22,878 bases of DNA from a virus. Of the stretch, positions 2 through 21,459 are shown in pieces. Within the stretch, counting starts at the first letter, position 1; every line of letters starts with the position of its first letter. Position numbers and translations under genes: made by a program. The stretch lies in the IMG/VR virus record IMGVR_UViG_3300005607_000302; one strand, 5' to 3'. Under the pieces are notes generated by a model. The model had not been told where the DNA came from, did not search any database, and worked only from the letters and a program-made list of their open reading frames with translations.

Positions 2-469
2 CAGGAGCGGAAGTTCCGCATCGAGGACGCGCTGAACGCGACGAAGGCCGCTGCTGACGAGGGCATCGTCCCCGGTGGTGGTATGGCGCTCTTCAACGCC
101 GTGGCGAAGGTCCGAGCATTGGTCAGCGGCGCGAAAGAGGTCGACCCCGAGGAGCTCCAGGGAGCGCAAGCGGTCTTCCGCGCTTGCCTCGGCCCGCTGC
201 GCCGGATCGTCGAGAACGCAGGCCAGAGCCCCGAGGTCGTCGTCAACGAGCTCGAGAAGATGAATAAGGCGGCGCCCACCGCCAATGACAACATGGGCTA
301 CAACGCTGCGACCGGCGAGTACACCGACCTCGTCGAGGCTGGCGTCATCGACCCCGTCAAGGTGACCCGCAGCGCGTTGAAGCACGCTGCCAGCGTGGCG
401 ACGACGTTCCTGTCGCTCGATGCTGTCATCTACGAAGAGCCGGCCAAGGAACAAGCGGGCGAGCAATGA
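2..469 (+). CDS. groEL: Chaperonin GroEL (Cpn60), C-terminal fragment; 5' end lies outside the window
   Basis: Frame 2 translates from base 2 as QERKFRIEDALNATKAAADEGIVPGGGMALFNAVAKV...SLDAVIYEEP. This matches the conserved GroEL equatorial C-terminal region, including the 'EGIVPGGG' motif. The stop is at 467-469. The tail 'EEPAKEQAGEQ' lacks the usual GGM repeats. Confidence 0.9.
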   Translation, partial: QERKFRIEDALNATKAAADEGIVPGGGMALFNAVAKVRALVSGAKEVDPEELQGAQAVFRACLGPLRRIVENAGQSPEVVVNELEKMNKAAPTANDNMGYNAATGEYTDLVEAGVIDPVKVTRSALKHAASVATTFLSLDAVIYEEPAKEQAGEQ

Positions 470-6142: not shown

Positions 6143-6550
6143 ATGGAGCTGACTCTAGAGGGACCGACCACTGCACACGCTTCGGGGAACTTGACAGTCG
6201 AGCTCCCGCGGTACATGATCCCACTCGAACCCGAGGAGATGCATGACTCCCGGACGGCTCCCAACAAGGCTCAGCTTGCGCTGGCAGCGGGTCGCCATCC
6301 CAACGGGAACATCATGTTTATCACCGGGGACGGTACCATCCACGAGATCGACTGCCAGAAGCAGGGCGACCTCCCGAAGGGTGCAGTCTACCCGATCGAC
6401 AACGGCCTGACCATCGTCATCTTGCACCCGGGCCACAAGCCCTTCGAGATCGCCACGGATTGGGCGTTGGAGAACTCCAGCACCCTCCTGAGCGCAGGGG
6501 TCATGGTTGCTACCACAAAAGGGCGCCGGATCACCTATGTAGATGAGTGA
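6143..6550 (+). CDS. Hypothetical protein, 135 aa
   Basis: Strong GC3 bias in this frame compared with the antisense ORF at 6155-6559. No motif recognised. Confidence 0.55.
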   Translation: MELTLEGPTTAHASGNLTVELPRYMIPLEPEEMHDSRTAPNKAQLALAAGRHPNGNIMFITGDGTIHEIDCQKQGDLPKGAVYPIDNGLTIVILHPGHKPFEIATDWALENSSTLLSAGVMVATTKGRRITYVDE

Positions 6551-6834
6551 AGACCACACTACGCGAGCTGCGCCAAGAGATCCGGAGGTTGCTCCGCGAG
6601 TTCGGTGTCGACGATGACAACCGGTATTCAGCAGGCTTCTTCATGGACGGAGGCGGTGCCGGCTTTGGCGGAGAGACCAACCGCAGCCGCGAGAACAGCG
6701 TGATGAACCCACCCCCAGGATTGGGTGGACCCGAAGACGAAGAAGGAGACAATGGCGAAGAACAAGAGAAGGGGCAACCAGGCGTACGAGTCTACGACCA
6801 CAGCGGAGGTCAGGGAGGACCGCCTGGAGTTTGA
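6547..6834 (+). CDS. Hypothetical protein: an N-terminal basic helix 'LRELRQEIRRLLREFG' followed by a Gly/Pro/Asp-rich low-complexity tail. Its 3' end overlaps infA by about 80 nt
   Basis: GTG start overlaps the upstream TGA (GTGA). The N-terminal motif resembles that of the ORF at 16776/16803 ('LRKLLREVG'). Confidence 0.35.
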   Translation: MKTTLRELRQEIRRLLREFGVDDDNRYSAGFFMDGGGAGFGGETNRSRENSVMNPPPGLGGPEDEEGDNGEEQEKGQPGVRVYDHSGGQGGPPGV

Positions 6835-7021
6835 GGGCAACGTTGTCGAGGCGATGCCCGGCACGCTCTTCAAAGTGCAGACCACGATGGGCAACACCGT
6901 CATCTGCACGTTGGGCGGCAAGATGAGGATCAACAGGATCCGCCTGTTGCCCGGGGACAGGGTGACCATCGAAGTGTCGCCCTACGATGTGACCAAGGGC
7001 CGAGTCACCTGGAGGCATTGA
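6752..7021 (+). CDS. infA: Translation initiation factor IF-1 homolog (S1-like OB fold), 89 aa
   Basis: 'EGNVVEAMPGTLFKVQTTMGNTVICTLGGKMRINRIRLLPGDRVTIEVSPYDVTKGRVTWRH' aligns with bacterial IF-1 'EGTVLE.LPN.MFRVELENGH.V.AHISGKMRKNYIRIL.GDKV.VELTPYDLSKGRI..R'. An AAGGAG RBS lies 4-5 nt upstream of ATG 6752. Confidence 0.8.
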   Translation: MAKNKRRGNQAYESTTTAEVREDRLEFEGNVVEAMPGTLFKVQTTMGNTVICTLGGKMRINRIRLLPGDRVTIEVSPYDVTKGRVTWRH

Positions 7022-7140
7022 TGCAAGCTTGGGCTTTCGAACACCCGTACCTGACGTTCACGCTGGTTCTGCTCGCGCTCATTACAGTCGCGAGCAGCGT
7101 TGAAGCGATCGCAAAAGCGATCGGCAAGCGTTGTCAGTGA
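7021..7140 (+). CDS. Very small hydrophobic peptide, 39 aa (MQAWAFEHPYLTFTLVLLALITVASSVEAIAKAIGKRCQ). Its ATG overlaps the infA stop (TGATG)
   Basis: Single TM-like helix and translational coupling. Not in the track because it is under 60 aa. Confidence 0.35.
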   Translation: MQAWAFEHPYLTFTLVLLALITVASSVEAIAKAIGKRCQ

Positions 7141-7856
7141 GCGCGGCGAGCTGACCGTGCAGCCGGGTGAGCCGGCTTGATGAGGTTGTGGAGGACCTCA
7201 GCGTCCTTGCTACCGAAGACCTGCGACGTCTGTCCGGTCGTCGTGTCGAGCAGGACGAGGTAGCCACCCGGCGTCATCGTCAGCGGAGCGGTGCACTTCT
7301 TCAGCCAGTCGTACTGGGCTCCTGCCTCGGTCTGCTGAGCATCGAACCACGCGTCCAGCACGAAATTGCTGACAGTGACGAGCTGCGTGCCAGCGTGGAC
7401 GTTGTAGGAGTCGTTCTCCACCGGGTCACATGCTTCGTAGGCGACCATGTGGGTGGCGTCCTTCTGTGCCCAGAGGTTGCACCCCTTGTCGACGAAGAAC
7501 TCGATGACCTCGTGTGAGAGGCAGGCGCTGACGGACAGCGAACCCTGGAGGATTGTGCCGTTGTTGCTCAGGATCGTCTGGGCAAAGACGCGGCCGTAGA
7601 TGTTCCCGCCCGGGTCCTCGGTGTGGTAGCCCAGAGCACCCGCCACGTCGGCGTTGTCCAGGATGTAGATGGGATAGCAGTCCGACGGGATGGTACCACC
7701 CTTGGCGACGAAAACGCTGTCCATGAACTTCTTGTTCCAAGCGGGCGCGACTTGCCAATAGAGTTGGTTCTTCACTGCTTCGAACATGAGTTGCACGTCA
7801 GAATCAGAAACAACCGTTGAGTCATTGATTACGGCATAACGAGTCATCTTAGTCAT
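7134..7856 (-). CDS. Hypothetical protein, 240 aa. The 5' third is AT-richer than the rest
   Basis: Long ORF with good coding statistics. No catalytic motif recognised. Convergent with the small peptide gene. Confidence 0.55.
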   Translation of the reverse strand: MTKMTRYAVINDSTVVSDSDVQLMFEAVKNQLYWQVAPAWNKKFMDSVFVAKGGTIPSDCYPIYILDNADVAGALGYHTEDPGGNIYGRVFAQTILSNNGTILQGSLSVSACLSHEVIEFFVDKGCNLWAQKDATHMVAYEACDPVENDSYNVHAGTQLVTVSNFVLDAWFDAQQTEAGAQYDWLKKCTAPLTMTPGGYLVLLDTTTGQTSQVFGSKDAEVLHNLIKPAHPAARSARRAH

Positions 7857-7889: not shown

Positions 7890-8408
7890 GTGAGGAAGAT
7901 CGAGAAAATTGCGGCTGCTTGCGTATCATGTCAAACAACGATGTGGATACGTCCACGTCAAATCGGACATCGAAAATACTGTTCACGTAAATGCAAGAAC
8001 AAAGCCATGAGCGTACCTGGCGGGATCAACCATTGGCTCACTCCCAAGACCTGCGAGATCTGTCAACAATCCTTCATGGCCAAGGACTGCCGCGGACGTT
8101 TCTGCAAGACATGCGTCCCTGACGGAACGTGGTTGAGCATCGCTCAACACTACGGGTTGTCGAAAGCTGCGTATGAGTTGTTGGTCGAAGCGCAAGGCAA
8201 CCGTTGCAAGATCTGTGGCGTGCAACCCACCGGCAGTCATCACTTCAAGCGCCTCCACGTTGACCACAACCACATCACTGGCGAGGTCCGTGGCCTCCTC
8301 TGCCCGAAGTGCAACTCGACGGTTGGGTTCGTCGAGACTCACGATAACATCGACGAAGTCGTTGCCTACCTCAAGCGTGAATCCCGACCGCTTCGCTTGG
8401 TAGGATGA
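7890..8408 (+). CDS. HNH endonuclease of the Endonuclease VII family, with an N-terminal Cys4 zinc finger
   Basis: 'HVDHNHITGEVRGLLCPKCN' matches the Endo VII HNH signature. N-terminal CxxC...CxxxC is present. Lower GC than the flanks. It is a paralog of the gene at 13879-14298. Confidence 0.8.
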   Translation: MRKIEKIAAACVSCQTTMWIRPRQIGHRKYCSRKCKNKAMSVPGGINHWLTPKTCEICQQSFMAKDCRGRFCKTCVPDGTWLSIAQHYGLSKAAYELLVEAQGNRCKICGVQPTGSHHFKRLHVDHNHITGEVRGLLCPKCNSTVGFVETHDNIDEVVAYLKRESRPLRLVG

Positions 8409-8412
8409 ACGT

Positions 8413-8586
8413 ATGAGCCGGGTCCGTATCTTCGCCCTGTGGGCGCTCGCTGCAGTTACGGGGGTCACGTGCTACCGCTTGTTCAGCCAACACCGGACTG
8501 AAGAGATCGCAGTCGTTGTCTGGATGCTCCTGATGGTGGTCTGGTTCCACCACGAGGACTGGCTCGGCGATAGTTACAGAGCATGA
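8413..8586 (+). CDS. Small membrane protein, 57 aa, two hydrophobic segments
   Basis: MSRVRIFALWALAAVTGVTCYRLF...VVVWMLLMVVWFHHEDW. Its stop TGA overlaps the ATG of the next gene (ATGA). Confidence 0.4.
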   Translation: MSRVRIFALWALAAVTGVTCYRLFSQHRTEEIAVVVWMLLMVVWFHHEDWLGDSYRA

Positions 8587-13437: not shown

Positions 13438-13733
13438 GTTGTCTCTCCCATGGCGATCACGTGGTGGTGACCCTTGTTGACCCACACCAGCTCGAACGTA
13501 GTCCCGGGAGGCAGTGGGTTGGACGGTGCGAACGGAAACTCGAGGACGACATCGGTGTTGTTCTGGCCCGACATCGCCTTGATGTGGACGGGCCACGGGT
13601 GAGCACGCTGGCTCGGCGCCAGCAGCTGGAGGTGATCGCCCAAACGTGGCCTGTGATCGTGCTGGTGGAAGTGGTGCGACGACCACTGCAGCTTTGCGGA
13701 CACGATTGCTGGGACGGGGAGGGCGACTGCCAT
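13434..13733 (-). CDS. Hypothetical His-rich protein, 99 aa (SSHHFHQHDH...KGHHHV)
   Basis: ATG at 13733. High GC3. It is the first gene of a long leftward operon. Confidence 0.55.
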   Translation of the reverse strand: MAVALPVPAIVSAKLQWSSHHFHQHDHRPRLGDHLQLLAPSQRAHPWPVHIKAMSGQNNTDVVLEFPFAPSNPLPPGTTFELVWVNKGHHHVIAMGETT

Positions 13734-13741
13734 GGTTGTAC

Positions 13742-13774
13742 GTATACTCCCATACACGAGTGTATACTGCCATA
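13742..13774. promoter_or_regulatory. Tandem 13-bp direct repeat GTATACTCCCATA / GTATACTGCCATA, 20-bp period, in the AT-rich divergent intergenic region. Candidate operator or promoter element
   Basis: Seen in the sequence. Each repeat contains the palindrome GTATAC. It sits between the divergent starts at 13733 (-) and the HNH gene (+). Confidence 0.3.
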
Positions 13775-13878
13775 GTATGCTTGAACGCCCATGGCATGCA
13801 CTTGCTTTTGAGCAGTACGTCACTCACAATTGTTCACTCAGCGAAACGTTACGTTGCTTGCATGATGCGGGTTTCAAG

Positions 13879-14298
13879 ATGACTCGCACTCCACTTCGAC
13901 AATTCTTGTTGAATCGCGGTGTGCTTCGCCCCAACACTCATGGTGGGTGGATGTGTGTGAAACGAAAACCGCGACAATGTGAGTACTGTCATAACGAGTA
14001 CGTGCCTGTTTCACGTACGCAACGTTGGTGTAAGACCTGTTGTCCTACTCGAAAAGATGCAGGTAGAATGTCAACATATGGGCTAACAATCTCAGCCTTC
14101 AACGAGATGATGCTTCGCTCTAATGGACGATGCGAAATTTGCGGGGAATGTTTTTCTGATGTTCCTTGTATCGACCATGATCATGTCACCAAGCGCGTAA
14201 GAGGTTTGCTCTGCACACAGTGCAACTTGCGATTGGGACATGTTGAAGTAGGACCAGACTGGTATGTCAAAGCAGCCGCGTATCTCCAACGAGCGTGA
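13879..14298 (+). CDS. HNH endonuclease, Endonuclease VII family, with an N-terminal zinc finger. Start is uncertain; the track ORF begins at 13732
   Basis: 'IDHDHVTKRVRGLLCTQCNLRLG' is the Endo VII HNH signature. Upstream Cys pairs are CEYC and CKTCC. Low-GC patch. Confidence 0.75.
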   Translation: MTRTPLRQFLLNRGVLRPNTHGGWMCVKRKPRQCEYCHNEYVPVSRTQRWCKTCCPTRKDAGRMSTYGLTISAFNEMMLRSNGRCEICGECFSDVPCIDHDHVTKRVRGLLCTQCNLRLGHVEVGPDWYVKAAAYLQRA

Positions 14299-16290: not shown

Positions 16291-16797
16291 GTGACTTGGC
16301 ACGTTTACGTTGACTGGACGCTTGAGGAGACGCCTCGACCATTTTACGTGGGAAAGGGCACTCCAGATCGTCTTCGAAAGAAGCAACGTAACATCGTTCA
16401 CTCTCGCATCGCGAAAAAGTACGGCATGCGACGCGAGGTTGTGTTGACAACTGATGTTGAGCGTCAAGCGCTTGATGTCGAAGTTCAACTCATTCAAGAA
16501 CATCGCACGTTTGTGGACGGCGGTACTGGTTGGTGGGGCGCCAATCTTACGTTGGGTGGCGAGGGCGTTTCGGGCACACACATCAACAAGGGTCGAACGT
16601 TCAGCGCCGAACATCGTCAAAAACTCAGTCAAGCTCGTCGTGGCAGGGCGCCTTGGAACAAAGGACAGCAAAACGTCTACACGGATGAAGCCCTTGCCAA
16701 GATCAAGAAAGCACGTTCACGTCAAGTCACATCAACGGAAACGAAGCAGAAGATTGCTGACGGTGTCCGTCGTTCATGGAGCAAACGATGCGACTGA
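16291..16797 (+). CDS. GIY-YIG homing endonuclease (I-TevI/Seg-like, with a NUMOD3-like motif)
   Basis: 'WHVYVDWTLEETPRPFYVGKG' is the GIY-YIG motif. 'SAEHRQKLSQARRGRAPWNKG' is NUMOD-like. Low GC. Paralog of the gene at 1011-1532. Coordinates are taken from the ORF track. Confidence 0.85.
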   Translation: MTWHVYVDWTLEETPRPFYVGKGTPDRLRKKQRNIVHSRIAKKYGMRREVVLTTDVERQALDVEVQLIQEHRTFVDGGTGWWGANLTLGGEGVSGTHINKGRTFSAEHRQKLSQARRGRAPWNKGQQNVYTDEALAKIKKARSRQVTSTETKQKIADGVRRSWSKRCD

Positions 16798-16802
16798 CAA
16801 TG

Positions 16803-17117
16803 GGACAGCTTCGAAAACTTCTGCGTGAAGTAGGGGCAAATAATTCGTGGCCGGGCCAGCCGTATGGTCGGAGCGTGACATCGCCCGACATCAACTCACG
16901 CGAACAGCTGGGCGCGATCTCGGCGAAGGCTATCGACACCGTGGCAGACCCGGACGGTCTGCCCGATCACCTGCTCGAACCCCAGGTGGACCCCGAGGAC
17001 TGCTTTGGTCCCGTTCCACCCGATGCAGAGCCCCCGTACGTGGGGCAAGATCCCTTCGCTCGGGACGTCAGCCCGAACCCGACTGGCACCATCAAGCGCG
17101 GTCCTACGCGCGTCTGA
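16803..17117 (+). CDS. Hypothetical protein (about 104 aa from ATG 16803; the track ORF starts at 16776). The N-terminal 'QLRKLLREVG' helix is followed by a Pro/Asp-rich tail
   Basis: It follows the GIY-YIG stop directly. The N-terminal motif resembles that of the ORF at 6547. Confidence 0.45.
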   Translation, partial: GQLRKLLREVGANNSWPGQPYGRSVTSPDINSREQLGAISAKAIDTVADPDGLPDHLLEPQVDPEDCFGPVPPDAEPPYVGQDPFARDVSPNPTGTIKRGPTRV

Positions 17118-18066: not shown

Positions 18067-18834
18067 CTAGCTCCTAGAGGCTGCCGCGGTCCTTCCTATC
18101 AGGGGCAGCGTCAGCACCTCGTAACCCGTCTCAGTCACCAGCACCGTGTGTTCGAACTGCGCTGACAACGAGCCATCGACGGTACGAACCGTCCACTGGT
18201 CAGCGTCGATCGTGATGTCGGCAGTGCCCAGGTTGATCATGGGCTCGATTGTGAACGTCATGCCAGGGACCAGGATGGGCCCGCCGGTGTGAGCGAAGTG
18301 GTTGACGTGGAGCTTGTTGTCATGGAAGATGCGGCCGATGCCGTGGCCACCGAACTCCCGGACCACGCTGCACCCGTTGACGTTGGCCAGGCGTTGGATC
18401 TCGTTACCCACTGCATTGAGGGGTGCACCCGGTTTGACTTGTTGGATGCCAGCCAACATCGCTGAGTGGGTGACAGTGATCAACCTCATCGCCTCATCTG
18501 AGACCCGTCCGACAGCGACGGTGGCGTTGCAGTCGCCGAAGTGGCCGTCCAGGATCGTCGTCACGTCGATGTTGACGATGTCGCCTTCCTTGAGGACGTA
18601 GGGACCCGGGATGCCGTGACAGACCACGTCGTTGACGCTGGTGCAGCAGGACTTGGGAAAGCCTCGATAGTTGAGGGGCGCCGGGCGGCCTCCCCTTCTC
18701 ACTGTGTCATTGTGGACGATCCGGTCGATGTCTGCTGTCGTCATCCCCGGCCTCACCGAGGTGCAGGCGAGGTGCAGGGTCTGGGCCGCGTGGCGGCAGG
18801 CGGCACGCATCTTGGCGATGTCTATGGGTTGCAT
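18067..18834 (-). CDS. map: Methionine aminopeptidase, type I
   Basis: 'VCHGIPG', 'GDIVNIDVT', 'REFGGHGIG', 'GMTFTIEPM' and 'SAQFEHTVLVT' are colinear with E. coli MetAP. The metal-ligand residues D, D, H, E, E are all present. Confidence 0.9.
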   Translation of the reverse strand: MQPIDIAKMRAACRHAAQTLHLACTSVRPGMTTADIDRIVHNDTVRRGGRPAPLNYRGFPKSCCTSVNDVVCHGIPGPYVLKEGDIVNIDVTTILDGHFGDCNATVAVGRVSDEAMRLITVTHSAMLAGIQQVKPGAPLNAVGNEIQRLANVNGCSVVREFGGHGIGRIFHDNKLHVNHFAHTGGPILVPGMTFTIEPMINLGTADITIDADQWTVRTVDGSLSAQFEHTVLVTETGYEVLTLPLIGRTAAASRS

Positions 18835-19503: not shown

Positions 19504-21459
19504 TCAGTCGGACGACTTCTCGGACGGCTTCCGGGCACCGTTGCCGTTGGCCTTGGGCTCGTGCTTGTCGCCCGTGATCAGGTTGGCGAGTAGGACGCTG
19601 GCGAGGTTGTTGATGCCGCCGCCTCCGCCCTCACCGCCACCACCTGCGACGATCTGCGGGACGAGCGGGTGCTTGCCGTTGGCGAGAGCCCGAGCGACCT
19701 CGATCGTGGCGTAGTTGGTCTGGTCGACGGCGAGCGCCTTGGCCTTGATGACCTCGGCTTCCGCCTGACCGACTGCGGTGATGCTCTTGCCGTTGGCTTC
19801 GCCGGTCATCTGGATGACCTTCGCATCGGCCTCAGCCTGGACCGTCTTCGCTGCGGCTTCCGCCTGGGCGTTGACCGTCTTCACCTTGGCCTGGGCCTCG
19901 GCCTTGACGACGTCCATGTCGGCGCTGGCCTTGGCGTTGATGACCATCGACCGCGAGTCACCTTCCGCCTTCTTCACGGCCTGCTGGGCCTCGAACTCGG
20001 CGATGGCGACCTTCCGTTCGGCGTCGACGACCTTGGCCTGCGTGGCGGCAGTCGCCTTCGCCTGCTCGAGGTCCTTGCGCTTCTCCTCGGCGAGGCGCTG
20101 GGTCTCGAAGGTCATCTGCTCCTGCTCGGCGATCTTGCGATCGGTGAGGGTCTTCATCAGCTCCTTCGGCGGCGTGATGTCACCGATGAGAGTGTCGACG
20201 GCGACGACGTTGTAGTCGGCCAACGCCTTGCTGATGGCGTTCTTGGCGTCGTCCTGGCGGTTCTTGCGGTCACCGAGGAACTTGATGACGTCCGAACCCT
20301 GAGCGGCGTTGCGGAAGTAGTTGCCGATCGTCGGCTCCAGGACCTGGGTGACCAGGTTGGCGACGTTGCCGAAGCGAGCGATCACCTTCGGAGCGTCCGT
20401 CCTGGGGATGTGGATGATCTGCGAGACGTCCAGGTTGAACGTGAACCCGTCGTTGGACCGCACCGTGATGGTGCTGAGGTTCTTGTCCAGCATGTGAGCC
20501 TCGGTCTTGCCGGTCGCCCAGTTCAGGACGATGTTAGCCGTCGGCACGCTCTCGACCCGGTGGGTGTACGGGTTGATCGGATAGCGACCGGGATCGAGGG
20601 GCTCGGCCCAGACGCCCTTCTCACCCTTGCTGACGAGGTTGCCGTGCTTGAAGGCCTCACCGGTGACATCGACGCCGGGTTTGCCGACGAAGGCGATGAC
20701 GCAGCCGGCGTGAGCGATGGGCACCTCGGTCATGTCGACTTCCTCGACCGTGGCGAACAGTGGGTTGATGAAGTACCGTCCCGCCAGGATCACCTGCTCT
20801 TGCAGGCCCTTCTTCCCTCCGTTGTCGAGGAAGATCTGCGGGTTCTGGTACATGTTGTGTCCGGAGATCTCGGGACCCGCGATGTCACCGGTGTCGAGGG
20901 GCGTGCCCTCCTTGGTGGTGACGACGCCGACCTTGTTGTCCTTGATCTCGGTGCAGTTGCAGAGGTTGACCTCGAACAGGCCGGTGTTGATGCGGTACTG
21001 CCCGGGCGGGATGATGGCGAGCTGTGGACCACGTTCGCCGCCGCCCAGCAGGAACTGACGAGCGTTCTGGAACGAGTCGCACTCGACCGTCTTGCCGAGG
21101 ATGCGCCCGCCGCTGATCGCCTTGCCATCGCGGCTGGTGACGACGCCGAGCTTTCCACGCTCGATGGTGATGAACTTCTGGATGTCGATCTGGTACTGCC
21201 AGGGCCACAGACCGAAGTGGATGCCCGGGGGCAGGGTGTCGGCTTGGACACCGGCCTCACCGTTGAGAGCGACGATCGCTCCGTCGGGGAGTGCCTTGTT
21301 GGCGCCGAAGAGGACGAACTTCTTGGTGACGATGCCGATGGCGTCTTCGGGGATGCTGACCATCCCGAACAGCCTCAGCACGAGCCGGTGCAGGACCAGC
21401 GCGAGGAGGACGAGGATGCCTCCGACGATGAGGGGCAGGTGGGAAACGACGGATTCCAT
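19504..21459 (-). CDS. Flotillin-like SPFH/band-7 membrane protein, 651 aa: an N-terminal TM helix, three 'PGxYxIN' beta-repeats, an SPFH domain, a long Ala/Glu/Lys coiled coil and a Gly-rich tail
   Basis: TM helix is 'LPLIVGGILVLLALVLHRLVL'. SPFH core is 'NIVLNWATGKTEAHMLDKNLSTITVRSNDGFTFNLDVSQIIHI...'. The coiled coil has flotillin-style 'EAQAKV/AEAAAK' repeats. Confidence 0.8.
   Translation of the reverse strand: MESVVSHLPLIVGGILVLLALVLHRLVLRLFGMVSIPEDAIGIVTKKFVLFGANKALPDGAIVALNGEAGVQADTLPPGIHFGLWPWQYQIDIQKFITIERGKLGVVTSRDGKAISGGRILGKTVECDSFQNARQFLLGGGERGPQLAIIPPGQYRINTGLFEVNLCNCTEIKDNKVGVVTTKEGTPLDTGDIAGPEISGHNMYQNPQIFLDNGGKKGLQEQVILAGRYFINPLFATVEEVDMTEVPIAHAGCVIAFVGKPGVDVTGEAFKHGNLVSKGEKGVWAEPLDPGRYPINPYTHRVESVPTANIVLNWATGKTEAHMLDKNLSTITVRSNDGFTFNLDVSQIIHIPRTDAPKVIARFGNVANLVTQVLEPTIGNYFRNAAQGSDVIKFLGDRKNRQDDAKNAISKALADYNVVAVDTLIGDITPPKELMKTLTDRKIAEQEQMTFETQRLAEEKRKDLEQAKATAATQAKVVDAERKVAIAEFEAQQAVKKAEGDSRSMVINAKASADMDVVKAEAQAKVKTVNAQAEAAAKTVQAEADAKVIQMTGEANGKSITAVGQAEAEVIKAKALAVDQTNYATIEVARALANGKHPLVPQIVAGGGGEGGGGGINNLASVLLANLITGDKHEPKANGNGARKPSEKSSD

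Follow-up and report, generated by a model that had tools for sequence, protein, structure and literature searches.

The DNA analysed here, 22,878 nucleotides (nt) of the viral record IMGVR_UViG_3300005607_000302 in IMG/VR (called the window throughout), carries a gene for translation initiation factor 1 (infA, encoding IF-1) that starts inside the end of another gene. We consider it likely that the two genes belong to a jumbo-phage cassette in which a true IF-1 bears a basic N-terminal tail overprinted on the upstream open reading frame (upORF), with both frames under selection and the factor acting as a putative helper of phage translation. Four same-strand genes, orf135, upORF, infA and a micro-ORF, are packed between positions 6143 and 7140 and overlap at their successive junctions by 4, 83 and 1 nt. 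They were compared with relatives found in metagenomes of forest and other soils and on viral contigs of IMG/VR, which are cited below by their L numbers where they have to be told apart.

A phage IF-1 with a basic N-terminal tail

The product of positions 6752 to 7021 (plus strand, ATG to TGA, 89 residues) is a genuine bacterial-type IF-1. It matched Pfam PF01176 with an E value of 2e-21 (75.8 bits, cut-off 30.2) and the NCBI equivalog TIGR00008 for infA with 87.5 bits (cut-off 61.15). The models for eIF-1A and aIF-1A scored far under their cut-offs (13.9 versus 102.9 for TIGR00523 and 15.8 versus 130 for NF003083). Residues 20/21 to 88/89 aligned without gaps with residues 3 to 71 of solved bacterial IF-1s, at 46 to 51% identity. 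An AlphaFold model based on 46 homologues showed a five-stranded OB barrel at residues 21 to 89, with a predicted local distance difference test (pLDDT) score of >90; its strands span residues 25 to 34, 40 to 44, 49 to 54, 70 to 75 and 82 to 88, and a helix (56 to 60) lies between strands 3 and 4. Residues 1 to 20 were disordered in the model (pLDDT of <50). Foldseek placed bacterial IF-1s at the top, some of them ribosome bound; target TM-scores reached 0.94, with a 0.9-Å root mean square deviation, and scores against 4ql5, 9fco and 1hr0 ranged from 0.89 to 0.94.

In the IF1 of C. difficile, K39 and M42 contact the 530 loop, R41 and R46 contact A1492/A1493 of h44, H35, Y60, R64 and R66 point towards S12, and R70 is critical (PMC10913371). 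The residues equivalent to K39, R41, R46, Y60, R64, R66 and R70 in the window protein are K57, R59, R64, Y78, K82, R84 and R88. The basic residues that contact the 30S subunit and the Tyr are thereby all kept, and they vary little or not at all among the 46 homologues, save for K82, which is K or R. Two contact positions are exceptions: I60 replaces M42, and T53 replaces H35. Thr53 is invariant across the family at the position where bacterial IF-1 has its S12-facing His. The original prediction, made from the letters of the window alone, had called the gene a clear IF-1 with an OB fold, and the PF01176 search, the TIGR00008 score above the cut-off and the modelled fold bear this out. The protein is an IF-1 rather than some other S1 or cold-shock-domain protein, and it retains the 30S-contact residues, so that neither outcome that the prediction had named against itself was seen.

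The start of infA at ATG 6752 is backed by the 46 aligned homologues and by an ATG at the same place in 14 of 14 family loci. GTG 6725 was rejected as a start, as it is at the ATG that the alignment of the homologues begins, and an upstream start is lacking from most of them. The N-terminal extension that had been predicted is thus present, at about 18 residues instead of 17, and is common to about 70 IF-1 homologues, several of them on contigs of 309 to 369 kb. In one locus (L012, 3998 to 4507), infA lacks the usual stop and reads on to 170 residues, which is either a C-terminal extension or an assembly error.

A phage infA is not new in itself, because huge phages are already known to carry IF1 and IF3 (Al-Shayeb et al. 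2020, PMC7162821), and IF1 is also found in soil huge phages (PMC11748809). We found IF-1 homologues in 36 deposited phage records, among them those of Sinorhizobium phage Phosso and the Lak megaphages. In IMG/VR, at least 592 stretches contain a homologue, and some of these stretches may come from a host. The earlier statement that mobile elements rarely encode such factors does not survive these counts and the two published surveys. The IF-1s of Lak, Phosso and the other deposited phages were <56% identical to that of the window. What is new here is the conserved double-coded tail on a phage IF-1, together with its partner gene. The window shares with the huge phages a phage-encoded IF1 in a genome of several hundred kilobases, and its factor has a basic N-terminal extension, as does their S21, for which such extensions were proposed to favor phage mRNAs (PMC7162821). 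In both surveys, however, the extension is mentioned on S21 and not on IF1, and neither survey describes an upstream gene that overlaps out of frame in a conserved way (PMC7162821, PMC11748809).

The window protein resembles bacterial InfA in its OB fold and basic 30S-binding surface. It differs in having 89 instead of about 72 residues (InfA being an appendage-free domain of about 70 residues), in its 18-residue, disordered, basic N-terminal tail and in the invariant Thr that replaces the S12-facing His. It is also phage encoded, stands outside any ribosomal operon and starts inside another gene. A second comparison is with eIF1A, which has N-terminal and C-terminal tails besides the OB domain (PMC2731904). 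The window protein and eIF1A/aIF1A are alike in being OB-fold A-site factors with a flexible, Lys/Arg-rich N-terminal tail, but the analogy is one of design only: the tails are not homologous, and the window protein, modelled as an OB domain alone, has neither a helical subdomain nor a C-terminal tail.

During infection, the phage IF-1 would occupy the A-site of the host 30S subunit, alongside or instead of the host IF-1. Its basic tail may add RNA contacts that favor initiation on phage messages, in parallel to what has been suggested for the N-terminally extended phage S21 and to what the N-terminal tail of eIF1A does in eukaryotes. To our knowledge, phage-encoded initiation factors are known as annotations only.

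The same protein could, instead of helping, serve as an antagonist or decoy that sits on host 30S A-sites and shuts down or reprograms host initiation. Binding is likely for a protein that retains the ribosome-contact residues, the S12-facing His has given way to an invariant Thr within the family signature CTLSGKLRINRIRLL, and excess IF1 has been reported to inhibit protein synthesis (PMC10913371). However, to make its own proteins the phage relies on those very ribosomes, and the fact that all functional IF-1 residues are strongly conserved agrees with a working factor. The published view also favors interception and rerouting of host translation over blockade (PMC7162821). We regard an antagonist as unlikely and prefer a factor that assists phage translation.

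Dual coding in the overlap of upORF and infA

upORF extends from GTG 6547 to TGA 6834 on the plus strand and encodes 95 residues. The original prediction had pointed to an overlap with infA of about 80 nt in another frame; it measures 83 nt (6752 to 6834), infA being read in the +1 frame, and holds the IF-1 tail and the first strand residues on one side and the last 27 codons of upORF on the other. A hidden Markov model scan of 260 IF-1 loci found upORF in 35, and in 35 of these 35 it was on the same strand, directly upstream of infA, with infA in the +1 frame. These loci represent 21 distinct IF-1 sequences and range from 34 to 67% GC. The scan detected no upORF at the remaining 225 loci, which were bacterial or from other phages. 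The overlap measured 59 to 98 nt in 14 compared loci (34 to 67% GC) and 20 to 65 nt in five more distant members.

We examined both frames by resampling in the 14 relatives, redrawing synonymous codons according to each locus's own codon usage (2,000 resamplings). Because the nulls ignore phylogeny, and the controls themselves lie slightly over them, it is the effect sizes relative to the controls, not the P values, that serve as evidence: with IF-1 fixed, pairwise identity in the upORF frame (IF-1 codons 2 to 20) was 0.40 versus a null of 0.18 ± 0.012, a level reached by 0 of 2,000 resamplings, and the upORF frame contained 1 stop versus 18.6 expected, while the OB-fold control for shared ancestry gave an identity of 0.28 versus 0.25 and 34 stops versus 42 expected. 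In the reverse direction, with upORF fixed, identity in the IF-1 frame was 0.287 versus 0.192 ± 0.011 (0 of 2,000), and the control gave 0.245 versus 0.206. The picture was the same when resampling was limited to 11 divergent loci. Thus, both overlapping frames are under selection.

Individual codons tell the same story. Arg81 of upORF is invariant even though it is coded by CGA, CGG or AGG, and the IF-1 residues that share its bases vary (Y/H/Q/S and E/G/Q/D). Q77, which also lies within the overlap, is invariant or nearly so. In all members, a shift to the +1 frame turns the acidic upORF codons for (Y/D)-E-E-E or E-Q-E-K into M-K-K-N or K-N-K-R-R, the basic start of IF-1. Since resampling shows both frames to be constrained, the basic tail of IF-1 is a frame-shifted reading of the acidic tail of upORF, i.e., a product of overprinting.

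It might be argued that the overlap is meaningless, that upORF simply runs into infA up to the first chance stop and that one frame alone is selected. The position of the upORF stop is indeed not conserved, the stop is nearly always a TGA provided by IF-1 codons of the form xxT-GAx, the last 5 to 12 residues of upORF vary in length and sequence, and alternative frames in high-GC genomes are open by chance. Against this, the upORF frame is open also in phages of 34 to 49% GC, and the shortage of stops, the upORF-frame identity at twice its null beside a control close to its own, the positive reverse test and the constancy of Q77 and R81 are all at odds with chance. For the first 20 or so overlapping codons, this explanation is largely refuted; for the overlap as a whole, we find it quite improbable.

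A further alternative, a programmed +1 frameshift that fuses upORF to IF-1, would yield an IF-1 bearing the upORF leader, perhaps targeted to the capsid and delivered with the DNA. It would account for the invariable +1 relation of the two frames, the upORF leader recurs on other small proteins, and numerous upORF stops read NNU UGA, which loosely resembles the prfB shift site. Yet the 14 relatives have no conserved shift site or stimulator, and their stop contexts and positions differ (GTT TGA G, CGT TGA G, CCT TGA C, AGA TGA A and CGA TAG A, among others). The infA ATG found in every one of the 14 family loci compared would be superfluous in a fusion, and L043 has a tail without upORF. The sole long fusion-like database protein (P0243, 187 residues) is a read-through in the upORF frame and not an IF-1 fusion. 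We therefore hold a frameshift to be very improbable.

By its conservation, upORF qualifies as a real gene for a small acidic protein. The product has an isoelectric point of 4.6 and a Gly-plus-Pro content of 28%. It begins with an amphipathic leader (MKTTLRELRQEIRRLLRE), which is followed by FGVDDD..AGFFMDGGG, PPPGLGG, an acidic run and then EQEKGQPGVRVYD..GG. The motifs found family-wide are the leader, AGF..GG, PPPGLG and the acidic run, joined in most members by EQEK.Q..(V/A)RV.DR..G. The gene was conserved in all family loci, and its indels stay in frame. The family comprised 118 clusters in a collection of 5.8 billion proteins and 137 representatives at 50% identity in one of 1.84 billion, all of them unannotated ("hypothetical"), so the earlier label of a low-complexity ORF understates it. 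AlphaFold predicted an N-terminal helix at residues 5 to 18 with moderate confidence and left the rest at low confidence or disordered. A tblastn search of deposited phages with upORF found no match. The likeness of the GFFMDGGG and acidic stretch to a ribosomal stalk tail was considered and dropped, as no profile match supported it. Third-position GC was 0.88 in the infA frame, and the non-overlapping part of upORF showed the usual coding pattern.

Gene callers handle this region poorly. upORF goes uncalled in L001, L004, L005, L008 and the contig of the window. infA is missed in L178 and cut to 65 residues in L177, which avoids the overlap, and an ORF of 46 residues in the wrong frame is called in L006/L007. 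Because callers so often miss upORF or truncate infA at the overlap, standard annotation fails to show the arrangement.

The acidic codons of upORF also shape the start region of infA. A Shine-Dalgarno-like AAGGAG hexamer (6743 to 6748, plus strand) lies within the acidic-codon run. It had been described as an optimal ribosome-binding site; the hexamer is there, but its spacer to the ATG is only 3 nt (ACA), compared with 5 to 7 nt for the motifs of other window genes, and it is not conserved, the relatives showing GAGGA, AAGGA or nothing recognizable 2 to 4 nt before the ATG. Purines made up 73% of the 70 nt around the start (-40 to +30) in the window, against 50% window-wide, and 66 to 79% across loci, against a background of about 50%. 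In 9 of 15 loci, its predicted structure was weaker than that of 95% or more of the random windows drawn from the same locus. The conserved feature of the start is a purine-rich, weakly structured stretch made by the acidic upORF codons.

Given the presence of the ATG in every family locus compared, the simple reading is that infA would initiate independently at its own ATG, in purine-rich and weakly structured RNA. Ribosomes translating upORF would cross this start and terminate 20 to 98 nt past it, and re-initiation there would be hard. Translation of upORF would probably tune the output of IF-1.

Overprinted phage gene pairs are known from the overlapping genes of phiX174 and from Rz/Rz1 of lambda. 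As in those pairs, two frames of one DNA are selected here, and one of them probably arose de novo. In contrast to them, only the termini overlap (by 20 to 98 nt), and the product is an appendage on a universal translation factor, with inversion of charge.

The dual-coding arrangement is conserved throughout a phage lineage, and a tree of IF-1s points to a single origin of the upORF-linked sequences. A neighbor-joining tree of 208 distinct IF-1 cores, which rests on about 70 residues, is weakly resolved and is indicative only, placed the 21 upORF-linked sequences under one node with only three further sequences, all from IMG/VR viral contigs and none bacterial. Within this clade, upORF is absent from L026 and L082, whose tail is short or missing. 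L043 (3905 to 4237) has lost upORF and keeps orf135 and the micro-ORF; its IF-1 has 110 residues and a long, basic, Lys/Asn-rich tail. The retention of a tail in L043 after the loss of upORF argues that the tail may have a function of its own. Two IMG/VR phage IF-1s inspected outside the clade (L028 and L036) have neither tail nor upORF.

Several points count against the picture of an overprinted, functional tail on a factor that aids the phage. What the tail and the phage IF-1 do is inferred. Thr53 in place of His could signal altered, even antagonistic, binding to the ribosome. Overlapping genes are hard to separate, so the conservation of the overlap may in part be a frozen accident. The absence of phylogeny from the resampling nulls and the weak resolution of the tree belong on the same side of the balance.

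Gene neighborhood of the cassette

The window represents part of the genome of an uncultured soil jumbo phage. Its relatives are IMG/VR and metagenome contigs of 291 to 369 kb with conserved synteny, and an identical copy of its IF-1 occurs on a 32.9-kb soil metagenome contig in ENA, from which the window derives; a search of IMG/VR for exact matches to the window gave no hit. The gene order in the relatives is AAA ATPase, GroEL, ..., orf135, upORF, infA, ..., metallophosphoesterase, ..., methionine aminopeptidase (MetAP). Scanned with the IF-1 profile, metagenomes and genomes yielded mostly ordinary bacterial infA, which was used as an outgroup only; among bacterial species-representative genomes, the closest IF-1 was 58% identical, over the core only. 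That the stretch is bacterial, a host infA in a misbinned or chimeric contig, is barely credible: IF-1 is universal in bacteria, the window covers 22.9 kb of a metagenome contig that is 32.9 kb long, and a megablast search of the whole window against deposited phages gave no match, but there is no ribosomal-protein operon around infA, the gene order is shared with IMG/VR viral contigs of 340 to 369 kb, the window contains three homing-endonuclease genes along with numerous small ORFs that lack annotation, relatives carry proteins with the N-terminal motif of T4 Gp23, and the IF-1 clade contains no bacterial sequence, the best bacterial match being the distant one just given.

The first cassette gene, orf135 (6143 to 6550, plus strand), encodes a conserved hypothetical protein of 135 residues, and its TGA stop and the start codon GTG of upORF run into each other as GTGA. 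Homologues occupy the same position in L001, L004 to L008, L011, L012, L017, L018, L020 and L043. In L001/L002, an extra endonuclease VII gene (L001, 9348 to 9737, minus strand) is inserted precisely between the orf135 homologue and upORF; the GTGA coupling is broken there, and the overlap of upORF with infA is intact.

The last cassette gene is the micro-ORF (ATG 7021 to TGA 7140, plus strand, 39 residues), whose start was taken as this ATG and not as the TTG of the automatic ORF list. Its peptide consists of MQAWAFEHPYLTF and one hydrophobic helix and is predicted to be a single-pass membrane protein. A hydrophobic peptide of this length starting on the infA stop had been proposed, and comparison upheld it: the ATG shares one base with the stop (TGATG), and homologues lie directly 3' of infA in L005, L006/7, L008, L017, L018, L025, L043 and L177 (39 to 61% GC). 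Among close relatives, codon position 2 differs least (4 differences versus 13 to 14 at positions 1 and 3), and gene calling on the contig of the window picked up the micro-ORF. On this evidence, we take it to be a real, conserved small membrane peptide. A GGAGG Shine-Dalgarno sequence (7011 to 7015, plus strand) stands 5 nt before its ATG, and the arrangement is the same in L005 and L006. Translation of the micro-ORF would be coupled to that of infA through TGATG, with use of the GGAGG supplied by the conserved W87-R88 codons of IF-1. These Trp-Arg codons (TGG AGG) are a second, smaller double use of bases. In L001, the micro-ORF is missing, and a convergent gene abuts infA.

In the window, this convergent gene (7134 to 7856, minus strand) encodes a hypothetical protein of 240 residues, and its stop overlaps the last 7 nt of the micro-ORF. 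The close relatives L001, L005 and L006 share it, L004 and L008 lack it, and it breaks up the ancestral order, which appears from the comparison to have been orf135, upORF, infA, micro-ORF and a gene of the leader-bearing family 2 described below. Together with a homing endonuclease gene, it stands in the window between infA and the gene for a small two-helix membrane protein (8413 to 8586, plus strand), a family identified by pairwise BLASTP with proteins of L004 (10340 to 10513), L008 (10468 to 10683), L011 (4267 to 4476) and L016 (4261 to 4452). In several relatives, this gene directly follows infA or the micro-ORF.

Two genes named in the original prediction, groEL and a MetAP gene, are both present near infA and are syntenic in relatives. 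The C-terminal part of GroEL/Cpn60 (Pfam PF00118) is encoded at 83 to 469 (plus strand), the gene extending beyond the start of the window, and full-length GroEL is syntenic in L001, L004, L006, L008, L015, L026 and the P0165 contig. MetAP (M24 family; Pfam PF00557, E value of 4e-49) is encoded at 18067 to 18834 (minus strand) and is syntenic in L004 and L008. This synteny in close relatives is compatible with a putative theme of translation and nascent-chain processing, and shared ancestry alone may explain it. A putative remodeling of initiation and nascent-chain processing by the phage is plausible and matches published proposals.

The window also encodes glycosyltransferases, a metallophosphoesterase, two SPFH proteins, three homing-endonuclease-like genes and many unannotated small ORFs. 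The SPFH/Band-7 proteins are adjacent (19504 to 21459 and 21533 to 22723, both on the minus strand, the second towards the window end); the second matches the shoulder domain of the major vault protein (E value of 2e-30) and a vault repeat, and such a vault-like pair is unusual for a phage. The homing-endonuclease-like genes, at 7890 to 8408, 13732 to 14298 and 16291 to 16797 (all on the plus strand), include two of the endonuclease VII type and one of PHROG 314. No tRNA was found in the window, and an Rfam scan of the window returned no family. A scan for promoters and terminators near the infA cassette gave nothing convincing. orf135, upORF, the micro-ORF, the 240-residue gene and family 2 had no Pfam or PHROG match.

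A leader shared by three protein families

The N-terminal leader of upORF is encoded at 6547 to 6600 (plus strand; residues 1 to 18, ending in L-R-E). The first 14 to 18 residues recur on at least two other, otherwise unrelated families of small proteins: a regular-expression scan with M[KR][ILV]T[ILV]xxL[RK]xx[ILV][RK]E placed the leader in three families at 14 loci. Its end has the form [ILV]-[RK]-E; E18 of upORF is invariant in 14 sequences and nearly so in 58, in a motif that is short.

An echo of the upORF helix near position 16803 had been noticed earlier and is real, for the ORF at 16788 to 17117 (plus strand) carries the leader, with MRLTMGQLRKLLREVG at its N terminus. This ORF represents family 2, with the layout MRLTMGQLRKLLRE-VG...SREQLG...HLLEP...GPVPP and homologues in all long relatives. 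Its members, among them those at L004, 15079; L006, 17484; L008, 14582; L011, 6658; L012, 7502; L013, 5883; L017, 4476; L018, 4393; and L025, 4425, share, besides the leader, H-L-x-E-P (another L-x-E), SREQLG and (Y/F/W)GPVPP, and some have a doubled leader end (e.g., ..FIRE..ILE-VG). P0347 (227 residues) has the leader at residue 1 and again at residue 89, representing either fused genes or two genes called as one. Family 3 starts with MKTTLGKIRLALRE and was found in L004, L013 and L016. The leader-bearing genes cluster around infA, and family 2 lies shortly downstream of the infA cassette in L017, L018, L020, L024, L025 and L178.

The internal proteins of T4 share only a short N-terminal capsid-targeting sequence, and the prohead protease cuts after L/I-X-E (PMC9026906; PMC3012670). 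The leader resembles this propeptide in that a short N-terminal peptide is the sole common part of the proteins and the genes are clustered; its end, a short motif, would be compatible with L/I-X-E. It differs in being basic-amphipathic and 14 to 18 residues long, the T4 sequence having 10 residues. That the leader-bearing proteins are a putative processed, capsid-targeted class is a reasonable hypothesis. A database search with family 2 returned 67 clusters, all hypothetical, and gave no support for capsid targeting; tblastn with family 2 found none in deposited phages, and no prohead protease gene was present within the 8 to 23 kb covered per genome. Proteins of about 200 residues in L006 (18743 to 19333), L004 (16381 to 16989) and L008 (16521 to 17120), all encoded on the minus strand, match only positions 4 to 49 of the 376-position profile of T4 Gp23 (...IAKQLVSIQPMSLPSGLIFY...). 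The window has no counterpart with this Gp23 motif, the block being deleted there.

Combining these observations leads to a bolder scheme that we regard as doubtful. The overprinted tail would make IF-1 similar to eIF1A by reaching the mRNA/P-site region of the host 30S subunit, and it would bias starts towards purine-rich phage leaders with little or no Shine-Dalgarno sequence; upORF, family 2 and family 3 would perhaps be a class of proteins processed by a protease and delivered in the capsid. If delivery of the leader-bearing proteins proved true, the IF-1 cassette would belong to a host-takeover module.

As a clean natural example, the window and its relatives show overprinting giving rise to a new segment of protein, here on a translation factor that is conserved universally. 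In uncultured jumbo phages, the shared leader could serve as a mark of proteins that are packaged or processed. A conserved and deletable appendage of IF-1 would, in turn, offer a defined handle on the selective initiation of phage messages.

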